The notes beneath the pieces are model-generated. The model had not been told where the DNA came from and ran no database searches. It was given only the letters and a program-made list of their open reading frames with translations. Below are positions 3,671-32,926 of a stretch of 64,000 nucleotides of DNA, piece by piece; position 1 is the first letter of the stretch, and each line of letters begins with the position of its first letter. A program made the position numbers and the translations under genes. This stretch comes from Candidatus Iainarchaeum sp. (GTDB lineage: Archaea; Iainarchaeota; Iainarchaeia; Iainarchaeales; UBA10191): the NCBI GenBank assembly GCA_030649735.1, contig JAUSFL010000008.1, positions 1 through 64,000 on the forward strand, given 5' to 3'.

Positions 3671-4306
3671 TTGAGCAAAAATAGTACTGAAAGCATGCAT
3701 ACTGGAACAACCACTGTCGGTGTTTTGGGAAAGGATGCCGTGGTTTTGGCGGCAGACATGAAGGCAACTTTGGGCAATATTGCTTCAGACACTAATGTCA
3801 CTAAAGTCTACAAAATCAATGACAAGGCGGCAATCACTATTGCCGGCGGAGTCGGGGATGCCTTGACTGTAGTGCGGTTTTTGAAAAGCCATGCAAAGCT
3901 TTTTGAGATTGAAAGGGAGAATGTAATGACTCCAAAGGCAATAATCACTTTTCTTTCAAACATCTTGAACAGCAACAGGTATTATCCATTCCAGGTATTT
4001 TTCATTATTGGCGGGTTTAATGGAAAGCCCGAACTTTACACTTCAGACCTTGTCGGCGGCTTTAATGAAGTTGACAAGTTCACTAGCACTGGCTCTGGCT
4101 TTGAGCTGGCTTATGGCTTTTTGGAAGACCAATTTAAGGAAGCGCTTTCAACTGAAAAGGCAATTGAATTGGCTGTCAAGGCAGTGAAAGTCGCAAAAAA
4201 GCGCGACATTTACACTGGCGGAGACGGCGTTAAAGTATTGGTCATTTCAAAAGACGGGGTCAAAGAACTAGGCAAGAAAGAAGTTGAAAAATACTTGGGC
4301 ACTTAA
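3671..4306 (+). CDS. psmB: proteasome beta subunit
   Basis: Propeptide plus GTTTVG, LAAD, GSG motifs; adjacent to aCPSF1 as is usual in archaea. Confidence 0.96.
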   Translation: MSKNSTESMHTGTTTVGVLGKDAVVLAADMKATLGNIASDTNVTKVYKINDKAAITIAGGVGDALTVVRFLKSHAKLFEIERENVMTPKAIITFLSNILNSNRYYPFQVFFIIGGFNGKPELYTSDLVGGFNEVDKFTSTGSGFELAYGFLEDQFKEALSTEKAIELAVKAVKVAKKRDIYTGGDGVKVLVISKDGVKELGKKEVEKYLGT

Positions 4307-4399: not shown

Positions 4400-6292
4400 A
4401 TGGTCTTTATGACTACAGATTTGATAAAGCAAATTAAAGAAACAGTAATGAACAATGTTCCAGAAAGCGCCAAAGTCACTTCAGTGGACATTGAAGGGCC
4501 GGAAGTGGCAATTTACACTAAAAACCCGCGGGCTTTTTTCGAGAACGAAAACTTAGTGGCTAAAGTGGCTTTTGAATTAAAAAAGCGCGTGAACATTCGA
4601 ACAGACAAGAGCCTTTTGATGGAAGCCGACTTGGCTGAAAAGAAAATCAAGGAATTGGTTCCGGCAGAGGCAGACATTAGGAAAATTGATTTCAATCCCG
4701 CATTCAGTGAAGTTGTCATTGAAAGCATGAAGCCTGGCCTGGTCATCGGAAAGGAAGGAGTGACAAGCAAGAGCATTATTTTAGAGACTGGCTGGGTTCC
4801 AAACATAATCCGTTCTCCAACGTCCCCTTCAGAAATACTTAATGGAATAAGGCATCACTTGAGCAAGTATTCTGCAGAAAGGAAAAAAATCCTTCAGGCA
4901 ACTGCGGAAAAAATTTACCGCAATCCGGCAAACCCGAATAAATGGGTCAGGATTACTGCATTAGGCAGTTTTAGGGAAGTTGGCAGAAGTGCAATGCTGG
5001 TTGAAACCCAAGACACCAGGGTTTTATTGGATTGTGGAATAAACCCTGCAAACAATGAAGAGCCTTTTCCAATTCTTGAAGCGCTTCGTTATCCAGTGCA
5101 GGAAATTGACGCTGTAATAATCAGCCACGCTCACTTGGACCACGCCGGCTTTTTGCCTTACTTGTTCAAGCTAGGATACAAAGGGCCTGTTTATTGCACG
5201 CCTCCAACCAGGGATTTAATGGCCTTATTGCAGTTTGACTTCATTGATGTTTTTGTAAAGGAAGGAAAAGAGCCGCCTTATTCTGAAAGAGACGTCAAGG
5301 AAATGATAAAATATTGCATTCCACGCGAGTATCGTGAAGTTACTGACATTGCGCCAGACATGAGGCTTACATTCCATAATGCAGCGCACATTTTAGGCAG
5401 TGCAAGCGTTCACTTGCACATTGGAGAAGGCGCGCACAACCTAGTTTACAGCGCTGATTTAAAGTATGGGTTTACCCGCTTGTTTAACAATATTGACATT
5501 AATTATCCTCGCTTGGAAACCTTAATTTTAGAAAGCACTTATGCTGGAAAAGGCGAAATGCCTGACAGGCAATATTCAGAAGACGCGCTTATCAACATAA
5601 TTCGAGAGACAGTGACTAATGGCGGCAATGTTTTAATTCCCGTATTTTCTGTTGGAAGGGCGCAGGAAATAATGCTTGTAATTGAAGAATACTACCGCAG
5701 GGGCTCTTTGGAAGCAAAAGTCTTTATTGACGGAATGACTAAGGAAGCCTCGGCAATTCATACTGCATATCCTGAATACTTGAGAAAATCAGTCCAGCGG
5801 AGAATTTTGCAGAATGATTCTCCATTCACTTCAGAATTATTCCAGCTTGCAAACCACAAAAACAGGCAGGAAATAATTGACAATGGCGGGGCTGTAATCC
5901 TGGCAAGCTCTGGAATGCTGACTGGCGGAGCATCAGTGGATTATTTCCACAGAATGGCCGCAGACCCAAAAAACACAATGATTTTTGTAGGATACCAGTC
6001 TGAAGGCTCAATGGGAAGAAAAATTCAAGGCGGAGTGAAAACAATTCCAGTAATGGAAAACGGCAGGGCAAAAGCATTGGACATTAAAATGCGCGTTGAA
6101 ACAGTCGAAGGCTTTTCAGGCCATAGTTTTAGGAATGAGCTTTTGGCTTATTTAAGGACTTTAAATCCAAAGCCAAAAAGAGTGCTAGTAAACCATGGAG
6201 ATTCTACAGTAGAGTTTGCGAAATTTATTTCAAACAGATTCCGCATAAACACCACTGCTCCGCGCAATCTTGACGCTTTAAGGCTAAGATAA
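4400..6292 (+). CDS. fttA: beta-CASP ribonuclease aCPSF1 (FttA)
   Basis: N-terminal KH domains, SHAHLDH, AAHILGS, GFSGHS. Confidence 0.96.
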   Translation: MVFMTTDLIKQIKETVMNNVPESAKVTSVDIEGPEVAIYTKNPRAFFENENLVAKVAFELKKRVNIRTDKSLLMEADLAEKKIKELVPAEADIRKIDFNPAFSEVVIESMKPGLVIGKEGVTSKSIILETGWVPNIIRSPTSPSEILNGIRHHLSKYSAERKKILQATAEKIYRNPANPNKWVRITALGSFREVGRSAMLVETQDTRVLLDCGINPANNEEPFPILEALRYPVQEIDAVIISHAHLDHAGFLPYLFKLGYKGPVYCTPPTRDLMALLQFDFIDVFVKEGKEPPYSERDVKEMIKYCIPREYREVTDIAPDMRLTFHNAAHILGSASVHLHIGEGAHNLVYSADLKYGFTRLFNNIDINYPRLETLILESTYAGKGEMPDRQYSEDALINIIRETVTNGGNVLIPVFSVGRAQEIMLVIEEYYRRGSLEAKVFIDGMTKEASAIHTAYPEYLRKSVQRRILQNDSPFTSELFQLANHKNRQEIIDNGGAVILASSGMLTGGASVDYFHRMAADPKNTMIFVGYQSEGSMGRKIQGGVKTIPVMENGRAKALDIKMRVETVEGFSGHSFRNELLAYLRTLNPKPKRVLVNHGDSTVEFAKFISNRFRINTTAPRNLDALRLR

Positions 6293-18514: not shown

Positions 18515-19264
18515 ATGGGTTTAGATGGAATTTTCTCAAAAATAGCCAAATTCAAAAGAAAGGCATTTTTGCCAATAACTGCCCAGGGAGATTCAGGGCC
18601 CTTGGACTCTAAATTTTCGGGAATTCCATTCCTTGAAGAGGGAGAAAAATGGCCTGTTTGCCCAAACTGTAAAAAACCAATGCAGTTGTTCTTGCAGTTA
18701 AACCTGGATGAAGCGAAAAAACAAACAAAACAAGACTGTGGTTCTGGGCTTTTCCAATTGTTCTATTGCACTTCAGACACTGAACCGCGTTGTGACACAG
18801 TCTGCGATGGCAATGTTCCTGAAGGAACATGCGAGCTTGTAAGGGTAATAATTCCTAAAGGAAAACCGCAAAACATTGTAGTGCCTAAATTGGAGCCGAA
18901 CCAAATAAAACCAGTAAAAATCACTGGCTGGATGGAAGTTGAAGAATTTCCTTCAGGCACTGAAATTCAAGAACTTAACCTTGATGAAAAAATAGCAGAA
19001 GATTATGAGCTAATAGAGAAAATTGATGATGAAAATAACACAATCCAGCAAAAAGACAAGCTCGGCGGCTGGCCATTCTGGATACAATCCCCGTGGCTTT
19101 TAGAATGCAAAAAGTGCGGAAAGCCAATGCAATTATTCTTTCAATTGTGCTCGCAAGCAATTCCAGAAGCCAGCCTTGATTACTTCTTCTGCGATGGAAT
19201 CGGGTACATTTTCCAATGCCCGCAGCACAAGGAAGAAGTGGTTTTCTTTTATCAGGAAAGCTAA
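18515..19264 (+). CDS. DUF1963 / YwqG-like protein
   Basis: SKFSGIP..WPVCPNC..PMQLFLQLNL and KLGGWPFWIQ internal repeat. Confidence 0.82.
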   Translation: MGLDGIFSKIAKFKRKAFLPITAQGDSGPLDSKFSGIPFLEEGEKWPVCPNCKKPMQLFLQLNLDEAKKQTKQDCGSGLFQLFYCTSDTEPRCDTVCDGNVPEGTCELVRVIIPKGKPQNIVVPKLEPNQIKPVKITGWMEVEEFPSGTEIQELNLDEKIAEDYELIEKIDDENNTIQQKDKLGGWPFWIQSPWLLECKKCGKPMQLFFQLCSQAIPEASLDYFFCDGIGYIFQCPQHKEEVVFFYQES

Positions 19265-19309
19265 AAGCTCAAAACCCTTAAAAAATTGAAGCGCACAACA
19301 CAGAACTTG

Positions 19310-19371
19310 TACATAATCAAAATCCAACATTAAACAACTGGTTTACTAAAAAGATGGGAAGGAACAACTTC
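19310..19371 (+). repeat. dispersed intergenic repeat, copy 1
   Basis: First 40 nt are 36/40 identical to 25810-25849. Confidence 0.85.
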
Positions 19372-19390
19372 AAAATAGTGAAAATTGGTA

Positions 19391-23824: not shown

Positions 23825-24154
23825 ATGGCTTCTTTCAGGCAACCAAGGAAAGTTCGAAGCGTGCGTAAAAACCCCGCGCAATTAATTCCCATTAAGCCCT
23901 TGTCAAGCCGAATTCCTTTAGCAATGCAGTCAGAGGTTAACCGATTGGAAAATCAAATAAGGCACTTGGAAGAAATGGGCTTGGATGCTGGCAGTTACAA
24001 GAATGCGCTATTGCGTGTCAAGGCAAATATTGAATTGCAAAAATCAAAAATGAGAAAACTCGCAAAACCTAGCGATGTTTTACGGGTGAAAAATGGAATT
24101 GCGCAAGCGCTTAACCGAATACTTGCTGAAAGAGCCAAGAACGAAGGCAAGTAA
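23825..24154 (+). CDS. basic hypothetical protein
   Basis: 109-aa ORF starting MASFRQPRKVRSVRK. Confidence 0.65.
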   Translation: MASFRQPRKVRSVRKNPAQLIPIKPLSSRIPLAMQSEVNRLENQIRHLEEMGLDAGSYKNALLRVKANIELQKSKMRKLAKPSDVLRVKNGIAQALNRILAERAKNEGK

Positions 24155-24593
24155 AAAACAATTGCCGGATGTGAAATTCCTGAGAGCTACTGATTTTAAG
24201 AAAAAGTTTACGTCGCTTGTTACTAAAACAGACAAGGAAGTTCTTATTCGTTGGGTTGTTGTTTGTGCTCGCCGCGTTCTTCCATACTTTGAGAAAAAGT
24301 ACCATAAAGACAAAAGGCCTAGAGTGGCTTTAGAAACAGCAAAGAAATGGTTGAAGGGTGGCTATGCAAAAGTTCCCTTTAAGGAAATTCGCAAGGCTTC
24401 TTTAGACGCTCACGCTGCAGCACGCGCAGCGCCAGAAAACAGCCAGGCAAGGTTTGCTGCAAGGGCTTGTGGGCAAGCTGTTGCAACAGTTCATGTAAAG
24501 ACTCATGCACTAGGGCCGGTTTACTACATTGGAAAGTTCAAGCCTAAAGAAATCGAATGGCAAATGAAGCTGCTTGAAAAATTTGCGGCTTAA
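24093..24593 (+). CDS. Imm5-like putative immunity protein (true start probably downstream)
   Basis: CARRVLPYFE...DKRPRVALE...AHAAAR...AARACGQAVATVHV.THA. Confidence 0.7.
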   Translation: MELRKRLTEYLLKEPRTKASKKQLPDVKFLRATDFKKKFTSLVTKTDKEVLIRWVVVCARRVLPYFEKKYHKDKRPRVALETAKKWLKGGYAKVPFKEIRKASLDAHAAARAAPENSQARFAARACGQAVATVHVKTHALGPVYYIGKFKPKEIEWQMKLLEKFAA

Positions 24594-25312
24594 TCGCTGT
24601 CTGTGTGGTATAAATTTCTGTAAATAGTTTGAGAATTTCCTTCATTAATTATTCCCAGTTCTGCATTAAAATTAGTAAAATATTGCTTATTTTTATCTAC
24701 TAAGGAAGAATAAGTTATTTTGCCGTTTAAGTCAATAATATTGCTAGTTATTTGAGCCCGCCCGAAAGAAACACTCCGAGTTGATAATATAATATCTGAG
24801 TCTTGCGGGAATATTGTAAAGTTGATTGGTTGTTCTCCACTATTATAACTGTTTTTGTTTTTTAAATTAAGAAAATTTGAATTCAATACTAATTTTGAGT
24901 TAGCGAAAACAAAAGCGGGGAATTTTCCTATATTTTTTGCATAAAATATGATCCTCATGTTTTTGTCTGATTGACTTTTGAAAAATTCGTTAATATATTT
25001 AGCGCAGGTAGAGTCATCCATTTCAACCGCACTTAAAAAACACTCGTGCCGTCCATCTGAAAAGGAATTAAACCGTACGCTGGCAAAACTGTAATTGTTA
25101 ATGGGCAATTGAAATTGGTAAGTTATTTTTGAAATTTCCAGCCACGGCCGATTTTCAGAATCAAATTGATTCTGAAGAATATTGACTTGGTCTTGAGTCT
25201 GAAGATTTGTCCAAACAGTACAAATCAGGACGCCAACAGTCAAAACTGCAATAATGTTATTTGGGTCTTGAAGCCAGTTAATGACTTTTCTTTTTGCTGA
25301 TTGACTAGGCAT
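24590..25312 (-). CDS. AT-rich membrane-anchored hypothetical protein
   Basis: N-terminal TM helix; atypical Asn/Ile-rich composition. Confidence 0.7.
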   Translation of the reverse strand: MPSQSAKRKVINWLQDPNNIIAVLTVGVLICTVWTNLQTQDQVNILQNQFDSENRPWLEISKITYQFQLPINNYSFASVRFNSFSDGRHECFLSAVEMDDSTCAKYINEFFKSQSDKNMRIIFYAKNIGKFPAFVFANSKLVLNSNFLNLKNKNSYNSGEQPINFTIFPQDSDIILSTRSVSFGRAQITSNIIDLNGKITYSSLVDKNKQYFTNFNAELGIINEGNSQTIYRNLYHTDSD

Positions 25313-25469: not shown

Positions 25470-25757
25470 TTAGAAAGGCTTAGCAACTTTCGCCTCATCT
25501 ACAATTATTTTATGGGAGAGAATCACAGATTTTACTTGTTCATGGAATTTCGTCATAGAAATATTTCCATTGCGAGCATTTGATAGTGCAAGAAACCCCT
25601 CTTCTTTGCTAAGATTTAAGCCCAATGCCATCGCACCCATATTGAAGCCAAGCTGTACTTTTAACTCTTCTGAAAGATCGTTCCAATTGTTCACTTGCGT
25701 GAAACGCAGAACTTGCTCACAAGCATGTTTAGTAAACTCTTCTTTTGTCAGCGCCAT
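25470..25757 (-). CDS. hypothetical protein
   Basis: 95-aa ORF with upstream TATA-like element. Confidence 0.7.
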   Translation of the reverse strand: MALTKEEFTKHACEQVLRFTQVNNWNDLSEELKVQLGFNMGAMALGLNLSKEEGFLALSNARNGNISMTKFHEQVKSVILSHKIIVDEAKVAKPF

Positions 25758-25809
25758 TTATGAATTGGGTAATATTTCTTTATAAAAGAAGTCCGCCAGA
25801 CTAAAATTA

Positions 25810-25872
25810 TACATAACCAAAATGCAACCTTAACCAACTGGTTTACTAAGAAAATAGGAAAGAACAAATTCA
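25810..25872 (+). repeat. dispersed intergenic repeat, copy 2
   Basis: Matches 19310-19371. Confidence 0.85.
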
Positions 25873-26018
25873 TTCTGGAAACGCGCCAAAATACGTCTAA
25901 TTGCTAATTCTTGCAACCCTAAAGCGACCGTAGAGAACTCTATTTTTCGCGCGTTCGTCGATTCTCTACATTTTACCCCATTCTAGCGCAAGCCCCGAAC
26001 CCCCCTAAGACCCCTATT

Positions 26019-26046
26019 TTGAGGTATAATCATCATTATACCGAGT
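26019..26046. other. candidate dif-like Xer recombination site
   Basis: TTGAGGTATAA-TCATCA-TTATACCGAGT: 11-6-11 layout with inverted inner arms, intergenic. Confidence 0.55.
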
Positions 26047-26149
26047 CCCATAGAGGGGAGTTTTTCAAAAAGCCTTGTTTTTTTGAAATGCGGTAAAACA
26101 CCAAAATAGTGGAATTTTCGCGCGCGCGAAAAAAAGCCGAGAGCGGCTC

Positions 26150-26195
26150 AAAATGGCTTGAAAATGGCTTCGTAAGATGGCTTTGAAAGATGGCT
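26150..26195 (+). repeat. four short tandem repeats AARATGGCT
   Basis: Copies at 26150, 26161, 26174, 26187. Confidence 0.8.
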
Positions 26196-26258
26196 CTGTT
26201 ATGTAGTTGGTGTGGTTTTTGGGAAAGTTTTAAATTCCAAAAATGCCTGCTAAACTGC

Positions 26259-26618: not shown

Positions 26619-26803
26619 GCACTACAAATTTGCGGAGCATTGTTTTGAAAGAAAATAATTAGGCACTACATTTTTTAAAACTTTAAAACCCAAAAAATTA
26701 AAGAAATGAGAGAGTTTATTGCTCCGCAAATTGAGTTATGTAGTTGTGTGGGGGTTGGGAAGAATTTTTATATTCGCAAAACTTAAATAATTAGGTTGTT
26801 TTT

Positions 26804-27339: not shown

Positions 27340-27587
27340 GAGCCAGAAGCCAACTAGTGGACAGTTCGGTTGTCCTGGAAAGGATGTGACCATAAAAGCC
27401 TCTGTAAAGCATTCGGCTATAAATGCAATGACTGGACTATAACTCACTGCATGAAATCTGTGCTTTGTTAAGCGTTTTATGGCGCGTAGAAGATAACCTT
27501 AAAGTTTGAAGGCAGGTTAAGAACGACGCCTGAAAGCAACTTGAGGAACTTTCTACACCGAGTCCAGAAAATGTCGGTTTCTGGTTT
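27340..27587 (+). ncRNA. candidate structured RNA of unknown class with long-range pseudoknot
   Basis: ORF-free; promoter-like element at 27305-27318; terminal helix, nested helices and 7-bp CTGGACT/AGTCCAG complementarity. Confidence 0.65.
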
Positions 27588-27845: not shown

Positions 27846-28040
27846 TTGGATTTTATGCCTTTGATTGAGAGAAAAAGCCAAGACATGATTAATTGGGAAA
27901 GCTGGCAAAAGCACTTGAACAAGAAGTTTGGAGTCAAGGAAGACGAGTTTTTGGAAAAGGCCGAAGAGCCAAAAGAAGCAGAGACCGAAAGCCAGGAAGA
28001 AATTGTTTCCTTGGAGTTTTTGGAAAAGCCAGTTGAGTGA
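27846..28040 (+). CDS. small acidic protein
   Basis: Glu-rich ORF; stop overlaps the next start. Confidence 0.6.
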   Translation: MDFMPLIERKSQDMINWESWQKHLNKKFGVKEDEFLEKAEEPKEAETESQEEIVSLEFLEKPVE

Positions 28041-30088
28041 AGCAAGTGCCTGCAAAAGCAAGAAAAGCAAAGCCTAAAAAAGCAAGATTGCCATATCTTT
28101 CAATAGCTTTAATTTTATTGGCAGTGATTGTTTTGGCTGGATTGTTTTCATTTGATTTCCTGAAAAATTACAAAATCAAGGAATTTACAGCAGGCGACAA
28201 TTCTTTTTCTTTCAGCTATCCGGAATTCAAGGGCTGGGAAGTTTCCGGACCGCAAAGCCCTGAAGAGGTTGTTCCGGCAACTAATTGGACTTTTTTCCTT
28301 AACAATCCGACAAAAATCAATTTTGAGTTTGCTCCGCAATTCACGGTTTCAAAGCATGCTTTTACTGGCGGAGACTACAAGCATCCTTTTCCGTCAATTT
28401 CAAAAAGCCCTAATGGTTACTCGTTCAATATCGAGCCCTCAGACCCTAACAAAGTATTAGTTTACGGGAAAGATTACTCATATTACATTAATTCTGTAGA
28501 CTTCAACAAAATCACGTTTTATGCGCAAGATTTCTCATTAGCCATTGTCTTGTCTTCAGTTTCTGAAAAAGACGGTTTTTCAAGAAAGAAGTTTTTTGAA
28601 GAAATAATCAAGAGCTTCAAGGCTGGGGGAAATCAAGCGAATGGAAAATTGGTTTACTCTGATTCTGGTTTTGTTCCAATGAACTCTTCAGGTAGAACCA
28701 TGCCTGTCGAGAGTTTTGAAGGAATTATTGAATTATCTGATGATTTGGGAATTAGTTATTTTGCCTTGGTTCTTGACAAAAATTCTCCAAGCAATCTTGG
28801 CCCTGATGCTAATCCAACTGTTAATGAATGGAATAAACGCCTCGGATTGCGAGATTCAAGGCATAATTTGTTTTCTTCCAGTGACGAATTGCTGAAAAGC
28901 CTTGTTGGAAAGCGCGTGAAAATTGAAGGAATACTAAACGAGAGCAATATGGCTCCAGGCCGGTTTATTATTACAAAATCAATTTGGCTGGTTTCTGAAG
29001 GAAATTCCAGCCCTCAAGAGTTTGAAGTGCGCGCAAGCTTTTTGCAAGATTTGTATTATGGCCTTGAAATTGTCAGGCTTTCAGACAACAAGGTAATCCA
29101 AACCATCAGCGTGAGAAATGCCGTTGATTTGACAAAGCCCGGCGTTGTTGAGTTGATTGACTTGAACAATGACGGATTTAAGGACTTGCGGGTTATTGGC
29201 GGCTATGATGGGAAAAAGCCATTGTATAAAGTGTGGTATTTTGACACTAAAACCCAGTCTTTTGTTTGGCTAGAGCAAAAGCAAGACCCTGTCTTGAGAA
29301 TGCCAGTCCGCCCTAATGTTGTCTTGAACTTGTGGCATTTCACTTTCGATCCTGATGACAAAAACAGGTTTGGTTTTGAAGTCAGCATTGACGGCCAAAG
29401 AGTAGAAAGCCAGATGTTGGGAAATGACGACTCGCTAACCGCCTTTCTGATTTTGACTGAAGGAAAGCACAAGCTTTTGGCAGTTAGTTATTCTGGAGAC
29501 AGTAATTTTAACGGCGCTTTTGGAAGGGGAATTGCTTTCAAGAAAGAAATTGAAATAAATGTTCAAGAAGGAAAAATGAATTCTTTGGATTTTTTTTACG
29601 CTTCTGCCATAAAAGGCCAAATGGTAACGAAAACAATCAGCCGCCCGTATTTTGACTTTGTGCTTTCAAGCGACAGCCTTCCTTCGGATTCGCCAATTCC
29701 AATCAGGGGCGGGCATCAGCAAGGCCAGGAGGCTGTTTTGACTAAAACTTCTCCAAATTTTGTTCTCGAGCCTCCAGTCGGAAGCGATTATACTGCGGCT
29801 CCTGCAATGAAAGTTTTGGCTTTTTTTGACGGAAAAGATGCATTGGCTTCAAACTTTGCATTGACTCTTTCCAAAGGCCCCCATGTTTTAAAGGCTGAAG
29901 GAATTTACGTTGAATTCAATGAAACAGACTATTTTGAGGCTTTCTTTTCTCTTACAGATGAAGCAACTTACAATTACGTTTACTTGGATTTTATGCCTTT
30001 GAGAAGCACTAGTGAAGACTACCGCAAGGTTTTCGCAAGCTCTTTTTCTTTTAGGATTGCGCAGCAGCAGGCAAGGTTTTACCAGTAA
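28037..30088 (+). CDS. large membrane-anchored multi-domain surface protein
   Basis: N-terminal TM helix; DLNNDGFKDL Ca-binding/FG-GAP-like loop; beta-rich. Confidence 0.8.
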   Translation: MKQVPAKARKAKPKKARLPYLSIALILLAVIVLAGLFSFDFLKNYKIKEFTAGDNSFSFSYPEFKGWEVSGPQSPEEVVPATNWTFFLNNPTKINFEFAPQFTVSKHAFTGGDYKHPFPSISKSPNGYSFNIEPSDPNKVLVYGKDYSYYINSVDFNKITFYAQDFSLAIVLSSVSEKDGFSRKKFFEEIIKSFKAGGNQANGKLVYSDSGFVPMNSSGRTMPVESFEGIIELSDDLGISYFALVLDKNSPSNLGPDANPTVNEWNKRLGLRDSRHNLFSSSDELLKSLVGKRVKIEGILNESNMAPGRFIITKSIWLVSEGNSSPQEFEVRASFLQDLYYGLEIVRLSDNKVIQTISVRNAVDLTKPGVVELIDLNNDGFKDLRVIGGYDGKKPLYKVWYFDTKTQSFVWLEQKQDPVLRMPVRPNVVLNLWHFTFDPDDKNRFGFEVSIDGQRVESQMLGNDDSLTAFLILTEGKHKLLAVSYSGDSNFNGAFGRGIAFKKEIEINVQEGKMNSLDFFYASAIKGQMVTKTISRPYFDFVLSSDSLPSDSPIPIRGGHQQGQEAVLTKTSPNFVLEPPVGSDYTAAPAMKVLAFFDGKDALASNFALTLSKGPHVLKAEGIYVEFNETDYFEAFFSLTDEATYNYVYLDFMPLRSTSEDYRKVFASSFSFRIAQQQARFYQ

Positions 30089-32551: not shown

Positions 32552-32926
32552 ATGCCTGGTTTGGGAAGCGTTTTTTTAAGGCCTGGAAGAAAAATGCAGC
32601 CAAAGCAGCCCCTGTTCAATAATAAGCCTAAAGCCTTGCCTGTTCAAAAGGCACGCGCGCCCGCGGCTGCAAGACCTATTTTGCGGGCTCGAATAAATTC
32701 TCAAAAGCGCCGGCTTCTTTCGCGAGAAGAGCAAATCAGGAATTCTGCAGTTCGTGCTGAACGAGCCGCAATAATCCGCAGAGTTAATGTTCCGTTCGAG
32801 CAAAGGCTTGCGAGAGTTGCTGCAGATGTTAAAGCAAGAAAATTGTCTTTTGATAATGGAGCTAAAATAATTGACAGGATTAATTTGCAGAGGGAAATTG
32901 CATTGAGGAGATTGGGCTTGAAATGA
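32552..32926 (+). CDS. Arg-rich hypothetical protein
   Basis: 124-aa ORF starting MPGLGSVFLRPGRK. Confidence 0.6.
   Translation: MPGLGSVFLRPGRKMQPKQPLFNNKPKALPVQKARAPAAARPILRARINSQKRRLLSREEQIRNSAVRAERAAIIRRVNVPFEQRLARVAADVKARKLSFDNGAKIIDRINLQREIALRRLGLK

Follow-up and report, generated by a model that had tools for sequence, protein, structure and literature searches.

The closest described systems to the element reported here are the XerA/dif pairs of Thermococcales (Pyrococcus abyssi and Thermococcus kodakarensis; Cortez et al. 2010, PMC2958812; Yamaura et al. 2025, PMC11840125), whose dif is described as a 28-bp, 11-6-11 site with TAA-N6-TTA, intergenic and present once per chromosome, served by a single XerA and by no FtsK as far as these accounts go, embedded in conserved flanks with flanking inverted repeats, and located at a skew inversion between converging genes. 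TAA(N)6-8TTA is named as the most conserved feature of archaeal dif (PMC11840125). Recombination in vitro is reported for Thermoplasma acidophilum XerA with dif1/dif2 (Jo et al. 2017, as cited in PMC8371274 and PMC11840125), an enzyme which according to review tolerates variant arms in vitro, and a dif-like site is reported upstream of the xerA operon in H. volcanii. Here we describe a 28-mer from the archaeon Candidatus Iainarchaeum sp. (GCA_030649735.1, order Iainarchaeales, hereafter G000) which is very likely the dif site of its chromosome and the target of the single XerA of that genome. The window, i.e., the whole stretch of DNA analysed, is the first 64 kb of the 149,140-bp contig JAUSFL010000008.1 (C30) of a 1.28-Mb genome in 51 contigs (92.7% complete). 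Our literature search found no paper on dif in this archaeal group; archaeal dif is already known, and the window site is very probably a fresh example of it in tiny uncultured archaea.

The site was first pointed out as dif-like in an earlier note on this DNA, and most of that description was borne out: the 28-mer stands in the sequence exactly where the note placed it (Table 1), the open reading frame (ORF) map confirms the non-coding gap around it, and neither xerA nor cdc6, both reported as missing from the window, occurs anywhere on C30. Like its Thermococcales counterparts, the 28-mer carries TAA-N6-TTA in a pair of imperfectly inverted 11-bp arms separated by a 6-bp spacer, is intergenic with conserved flanks, and occurs in a genome with a single XerA. 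The likeness is by description and not letter by letter, with TGCNGTATAA as the arm in this order, and it differs further in the lower symmetry of the window arms and in polar C/G runs in the flanks, as opposed to the A/T-rich flanks described in the paper. All of the inner 8+8 bases (GGTATAAT/ATTATACC) pair, and over the full arms 7/11 positions do, compared with 9–11/11 in many relatives. Sites of relatives are intergenic too, with 25–818 bp of gap per side across 40 loci, and Rfam and tRNA scans of the window returned no match.

Across the G000 genome, ATAA-N6-TTAT occurs 31 times, with an arm symmetry of at least 7/11 in nine cases, and the window site is one of seven with exactly 7/11. 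To place it among its relatives, we used 196 genomes of the order, 125 of them at least 85% complete and 55 high-quality. The pattern GGTATAA-N6-TTATACC with at most one mismatch was not enriched (28/196 genomes vs about 50 in a backward control). About ten of its matches, from different families, had longer arms in common (TTTTGC-GGTATAA-N6-TTATACC-GCAAAA), and the extended pattern TGCGGTATAA-N6-TTATACCGCA with at most three mismatches was found in 39/196 genomes, G000 included, vs 9/196 in the backward control, nearly always at one place per genome (two in G111 and G176). These sites form a single-copy family with the consensus TGCNGTATAA-N6-TTATACNGCA, spread over more than 15 families of the order. 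A covariance model built from 40 aligned sites (R1; matches taken at E<=1e-3) matched 56 of the 125 genomes at least 85% complete, each of the 56 at one place only, and 33 of the 55 high-quality genomes. A leave-one-out model from the 39 sites of other genomes, with the window excluded (R2), returned a sole match in the whole of G000 at E<=10, namely C30:26016-26049 (33.1 bits, E 2.2e-5, E-values of such short-calibrated models being rough). R2 singles out the window site alone, and the question of chance looks different once the relatives are counted. Conservation of the 28-mer in relatives, a check that the earlier note had named, is seen as a single-copy family across the order, and is weak in the same genus and family.

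In the 40-site alignment, five columns are invariant (T12, A13, A14, T22 and G28, giving TAA-N6-TT), and the window copy keeps all five together with seven of the nine nearly invariant columns. The spacer is fixed in length and variable in sequence, and within the arms paired changes preserve the dyad symmetry, as at pair 8-27 (GC 15, AU 7, GU 6, CG 3) and pair 10-25 (UA 25, CG 3, GC 2). The symmetry argument rests on these per-pair counts and not on the whole-helix score, for which covariation over 34 columns was not above that of shuffles (46/500 reach the score), with the outer four pairs being noise. Judged from this alignment, paired arms around a variable centre of fixed length are what would be expected of one recombinase bound twice on either side of a crossover region that it does not contact.

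The presumed partner is present. G000 encodes one XerA of 324 aa which scores 273.5 bits on the NCBIfam equivalog NF040815 recomb_XerA_Arch (cut-off 220), and whose best solved relatives are the XerA proteins of P. abyssi (4A8E, E 1.2e-57) and T. acidophilum (5HXY, E 5.2e-46). An HxxR...H...Y box, which we take to be the motif of these recombinases, is visible in its sequence. XerA homologues were found in 172/196 genomes of the order and in 54/55 high-quality ones. In 16 of the 56 site-bearing genomes, xerA is on the same contig as the site, at a distance of 0.7–13.7 kb in 11 of them (G033, G085, G084, G087, G086, G007, G026, G051, G126, G027 and G019) and of 42–668 kb in the other five. Fragmented assemblies bias same-contig pairs toward short distances; random placement in genomes of about 1 Mb would bring about 3% of pairs within 14 kb, and the observed linkage (11/56) is far above this expectation despite the assembly bias. 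The close pairs resemble the xerA-dif modules of haloarchaea, from which G000, with site and xerA on separate contigs, and the complete genome G032, with 455 kb between them, both differ.

The core also reaches beyond the order. An exact scan for TGCNGTATAA-N6-TTATACNGCA in one genome per species returned 48 records, where about 9–17 would be expected at random: about 15 from this order, of which 7 carry the name Candidatus Iainarchaeum and the rest correspond to loci recovered above, 13 from Thermoplasmata, 1 from Heimdallarchaeota and about 19 bacterial, the latter including 6 from Dehalococcoidia/SAR202 with extended palindromes. As far as its letters can tell, the dif core of this order is thus shared with Thermoplasmata, although their sites read ...GTATAAC NNNN GTTATAC... 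and those of this order ...GTATAAT NNNN ATTATAC.... Bacterial XerCD/dif is alike in its 11-6-11 organization, ATAA-N6-TTAT and terminus location, but relies on two recombinases, asymmetric arms and control by FtsK and its orienting polar sequences (KOPS), whereas this order has one recombinase and arms that are symmetric in most relatives, and dependence on FtsK, which was not searched for, is not expected. In IMG/VR, three 4.2–4.7-kb contigs (L236-L238) carry the exact core TGCAGTATAAT....ATTATACTGCA and a shared flank TATCAG...GAGCATGCTC, and may be small elements that use the host Xer system.

Both gene direction and base composition change around the site. The convergence of housekeeping genes described in the earlier note is confirmed by Pfam, with a proteasome subunit and aCPSF1/FttA on the plus strand to the left and a minus-strand cluster from 33.7 kb (S2, S9, L13, Rpo, S4 and SecY) to the right, and so is the richness in accessory genes, the ORFs between 16.7 and 30 kb being mostly without a Pfam family. 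The change of the plus strand from A/C-rich to G/T-rich, noticed by eye, proved real in the raw cumulative skews of the 149-kb contig (keto minimum at 28,085, AT maximum at 28,087, purine maximum at 29,580 and GC maximum at 32,925). The remark that the classical skew rule would make this an origin did not hold up, however: the keto signal mostly reflects the A-to-T change, which follows coding-strand purine loading, while GC skew alone points to a terminus. After strand correction at third codon positions, the purine and AT maxima of C30 fall in the ORF at 24590-25312 and the curves descend from the ORF at 28037, two ORFs that bracket the site (gene calls for these skews being crude longest-ORF picks that include some antisense false ORFs). 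The proposed check of third-position skew over the contig was hence positive in part, with a purine and AT switch at 25–30 kb and no inflection of GC skew at third positions (GC3), a measure that is uninformative in the complete genome G019 as well.

Relatives give a clearer picture than C30. In G019 (1,241,428 bp; site at 964,002), raw cumulative purine skew runs from a minimum at 282,280 to its global maximum at 964,212, third-position purine skew corrected for strand is lowest at 319,503 and highest at an ORF centred on 963,061, and the bias in gene strand climbs from 283 kb toward the site, which thus lies 0.2–0.9 kb from the purine-skew maximum. Such a profile is what one expects of a chromosome with its origin near 0.3 Mb, its terminus at the site and replichores of roughly 53% and 47%; archaeal dif is described as not needing to sit at 180 degrees. 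The corrected purine maximum of G027 is 0.5 kb from its site. Because the site is where genes converge and the GC-skew component reaches its peak, and because the G019 site occupies a global purine-skew maximum opposite the minimum, the replichore boundary proposed in the earlier note is supported, and a landmark whose identity that note had left open resolves toward a dif at a terminus-type boundary and not an origin, with weaker support from C30 than from the relatives. The skew switch would, in this case, mark the replication terminus.

A number of observations weigh against the identification of the 28-mer as a dif at the terminus. Taken by itself, the 28-mer is within chance expectation, its arms match each other at 7/11 positions only, and it deviates from the alignment at the nearly invariant C7 and A30. 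Model R1 has no match (E<=1e-3) in 69 of the 125 genomes at least 85% complete, and matches only 1 of 14 genomes of family f3. The closest relatives are particularly poor. A 3-kb contig (C87) of G001, a genome of the same genus with a 76% identical XerA, is collinear with 25.8–27.6 kb of the window and has at the matching place a site with the same right box, TACGAGGGGAACTTTTTGAAAAA, but with degenerate arms (15.2 bits, E 1.6); the site of G002, from the same family, reaches 12.7 bits (E 9), a model search of the G003 genome did not find the site, and BLAST of the 501-bp region against 40 relatives gave short chance-level matches only. In family f1, the flanks are better preserved than the arms. 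These fast-changing arms in the closest relatives are the main reason why our confidence in a dif site goes no further than very likely. No xerA lies on C30, and the skew evidence from this contig is imperfect: the raw turn largely reflects gene direction, the corrected curve does not rise over the first 14 kb, its fall stems partly from ribosomal-protein codon bias, and strand-corrected GC3 skew lacks an inflection at 26 kb. Corrected purine maxima also lie at some distance from the site in G026 (7.5 kb, with a corrected AT3 maximum at 1.3 kb), G032 (8 kb), G126 (16 kb, with a raw maximum at 0.3 kb) and G079 (28 kb), as does the raw maximum in G014 (13.5 kb). Finally, the orc1/cdc6 genes of G019 (839,789 and 1,127,072) are 124–163 kb from the site, neither opposite to it nor at the skew minimum; either the origin is not beside orc1/cdc6 in this lineage, or skew does not mark the origin.

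Some of these points could also be read to mean that C30 carries a relic or a secondary Xer site, i.e., a pseudo-dif or the attachment scar of a XerA-integrated element (an integrative mobile element exploiting Xer, or IMEX, or an integron-like cassette platform), while the working dif would be hidden in an assembly gap close to xerA, which is located at the end of C49. The surroundings would suit such an element, since the low-GC stretch (0.37–0.39 vs 0.41–0.43) consists mostly of ORFs without a Pfam family and includes an Imm5-like protein, the outer arm positions are off consensus, and two relatives (G111 and G176) do have a second site; the fragmented, 92.7% complete assembly, in which xerA is 3.7 kb from a contig end, leaves room for another copy. 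We nevertheless consider this improbable. No second full or half site was found in G000 and nothing else in the window exceeds 12 bits, such that a second (pseudo-)site bracketing an island, sought in both genome and window, is lacking, and extra sites in the accessory stretch, looked for with the IMEX or cassette idea in mind, were not found either. The window copy scores 33–36 bits, inside the 26.6–46 bits of relatives' single-copy sites with R1, and single-copy sites elsewhere share its deviating letters, with A at column 7 in G098, G026 and G126 and A at column 29 in six others. A contig of the likely source run, aligned to 22–30 kb, spans the site without variants, no joint falls at the site in the contigs of three public runs over this interval, and the other two runs contributed fragments of relatives only.

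A second alternative, which we regard as more improbable still, takes the palindrome for an operator between divergent promoters, bound by a local transcription factor and controlling only the small genes on either side. Its position between divergent ORFs, the TATA-like TATAA/TTATA of its arms, and a dyad symmetry with a variable centre would all suit a dimeric regulator. Across 41 loci, however, 116 of 155 neighbouring ORFs are singletons, and because the neighbours are not conserved the site is not a gene-specific operator; a single copy per genome across many families, linkage to xerA and to the skew switch, and the occurrence of the same core in Thermoplasmata, the class of T. acidophilum with its worked-out XerA/dif, also speak against local control. 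Least credible of all is a replication origin, with the A/T-rich palindrome as an unwinding element and the inverted C-run/G-run boxes around it as Orc1/Cdc6 binding sites, which the nearby keto-skew minimum and the presence of both G019 orc1/cdc6 genes within 124–163 kb might favour, but which is contradicted by a core that fits the Xer dif pattern, by orc1/cdc6 genes that are absent from C30 (those of G000 are on C49 and C13) and adjacent to the site in none of G019, G032 and G027 (at least 124 kb away or on another contig), by genes and strand bias that converge on the site and do not diverge from it, by the GC-skew peak, and by the purine-skew maximum and rising strand bias at the G019 site.

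The Xer-type dif reading of the earlier note is thus supported by a conserved single-copy 11-6-11 family, a XerA in the genome and frequent xerA linkage in relatives. Under the established Xer/dif model, the 28-mer core would be the presumed binding and cleavage site of two XerA monomers, one on each 11-bp arm. In a dimer of sister chromosomes produced by homologous recombination, the two dif copies would pair, and XerA would cut at the edges of the 6-bp spacer and exchange strands via a Holliday junction, yielding two monomers. In the most speculative part of this scheme, an accessory or boundary protein probably binds to the conserved C-rich and G-rich boxes that lie beyond the arms.

These boxes merit separate consideration. 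The C-runs to the left and G-runs to the right noted earlier are present in the sequence, and the polarity is a trend across the family: reading toward the site, C-runs occur in 37 and G-runs in 15 of the 80 flanks that 40 sites provide. In families f1 and f30, the core is flanked by a CCCCC box to its left and a GAGGGGA-T/A-tract box to its right, the left-box columns CCCCC and CC..TA are invariant in five genomes of these two families, and f30 sites read ATCCCCCTAAGTTCCATTA-TTTTGCGGG. The right box recurs at the same offset in G001 and, as ATAGAGGGAACTTTTCTCAAAA, in G002, and several families have AAATCCCTTCGTAA directly adjoining one arm. The left C-run box is a candidate accessory-protein site. 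That flanks in f1 are better kept than XerA arms hints at a flank function under stronger constraint, with arms drifting under a tolerant XerA. A bolder proposal, doubtful at this stage, is that the selected unit is a composite landmark of about 90 bp, in which the dif core stands between a polar C-run box and a G-run box with T/A tracts, and whose flanks would bind a second terminus-organising protein, for example as an SMC loop-extrusion roadblock like the TrmBL2-dependent boundary beside T. kodakarensis dif.

Taken as dif, the site provides a sequence-level anchor, likely at the terminus, for an uncultured order of small genomes, which helps to orient and close metagenome-assembled genomes (MAGs) and to read replication strand bias. 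The same dif core spans Thermoplasmata to this DPANN-type order, and the family motif with its flanks could help to locate dif in further archaeal MAGs and to examine how general dif-adjacent boundary elements are in archaea. The finding changes nothing about the mechanism of Xer recombination.

Table 1. The putative dif site and other features mentioned in the text; positions are those of the window unless a contig is named.
Feature	Position (strand)	Sequence	Remark
Putative dif core	26019-26046	TTGAGGTATAA-TCATCA-TTATACCGAGT	unique in genome G000
dif left arm	26019-26029	TTGAGGTATAA	
dif spacer	26030-26035	TCATCA	6 bp
dif right arm	26036-26046	TTATACCGAGT	
Left flanking box	25998-26016	AACCCCCCTAAGACCCCTA	C-runs; conserved beside core in relatives
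C-runs left of site	26000-26005; 26011-26014	CCCCCC; CCCC	
Right flanking box	26050-26072	ATAGAGGGGAGTTTTTCAAAAAG	G-run then T and A tracts; roughly mirrors left box
G-run right of site	26055-26058	GGGG	
Gene-free gap around dif	25874-26189		between divergent ORFs; size 314-500 bp
ORF left of gap	from 25757 (-)		95 aa; overlaps the next
Hydrophobic ORF left of gap	from 25873 (-)	MNLFFPIFLVNQLVKVAFWLCIILV...	41 codons
ORF right of gap	from 26190 (+)		
Repeated motif in gap	25944; 26115	TTTTCGCGCG	
Repeat units right of dif flank	26150-26195	(A)AATGGCT(T)	n=4, 11-13 bp apart
85-nt direct repeat	25748-25873 (-); 19288-19373 (-)		79% identical, 6.5 kb apart
Promoter-like blocks	26198-26231; 26735-26768	GTTATGTAGTTG...GGGAA...TTTTAAATT	paralogous
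3' motif	26610; 26654; 27155	TTAGGCACTACA	
RNA-like stretch	27359-27567 (+)		about 210 nt, non-coding; 1.3 kb right of dif
Proteasome subunit	3671-4306 (+)		
aCPSF1/FttA	4400-6292 (+)		
DUF1963 protein	18515-19264 (+)		low-GC orphan stretch left of dif
Imm5-like immunity protein	24093-24593 (+)		PF21805, E 2e-33; low-GC orphan stretch left of dif
G000 xerA	C49:3754-4725		

Several neighbourhood features of the relatives' sites were recorded alongside. A family of proteins of about 118 aa without a Pfam match occurs at 13/41 loci (L043, L044, L050, L052-L058, L067, L069 and L074) from at least five families, about 0.15–1.2 kb from dif and with its 3' end facing the site; it lies 7 kb from dif in G019, and the sole G000 copy is on another contig (G000:C9:5300-5638). 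One ORF cluster directly adjoins dif at 5/41 loci (L046, L056, L058, L060 and L077) in four families (f2, f21, f27 and f30). Its 247-aa L058 member, the one scanned against Pfam, is a free-standing LAGLIDADG endonuclease; tblastn found no ORF of this cluster in G000 or G019. Of the 56 sites, 12 are within 3 kb of the first base of a contig and several more are near the last base (e.g., G053:C50, G078:C33, G081:C18 and G188:C16), so that assemblies seem to break in the vicinity of dif, a hint of strain-level variation at this place. Within the low-GC orphan stretch of the window, no toxin cognate to the Imm5-like protein was identified, and a DUF1963 protein is encoded nearby (Table 1).

Repeats around the site are short ones only. 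The gap itself contains two copies of TTTTCGCGCG, and four AATGGCT units follow just right of the dif flank. Flanks of relatives have phased A/T-tract repeats, e.g., TGCCTCAAAA twice in G053; like the AATGGCT units, these may represent bent DNA or a protein array. The 85-nt direct repeat corresponds to the 41-codon hydrophobic ORF left of the gap, its second copy having a TTG start and a TGA after 18 codons. On the other side, the two promoter-like blocks precede two small plus-strand ORFs and, together with the thrice-repeated 3' motif, look like tandem small-gene units beside dif. In G001 and G032, GTTATGT also occurs at a distance of about 160 bp from dif.

Further to the right, a single-copy, non-coding stretch (Table 1) looks as if it encodes a structured RNA that has escaped annotation. 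No Rfam family matches it, not even at E<=1, and RNase P RNA and signal recognition particle (SRP) RNA are ruled out as its identity, these being located at C46:10693-10955 and C37:37044-37320. The stretch is 76% identical in G001 and 69–72% in G003, G034 and G013, spanning three families, and is unlinked to dif in G013 and G034. Its consensus fold from five sequences comprises 64 pairs, compensatory changes being seen at 33 of these, and over its first 50–70 nt contig depth is far above that of the neighbouring DNA in two groundwater runs, with many contig ends at this place.

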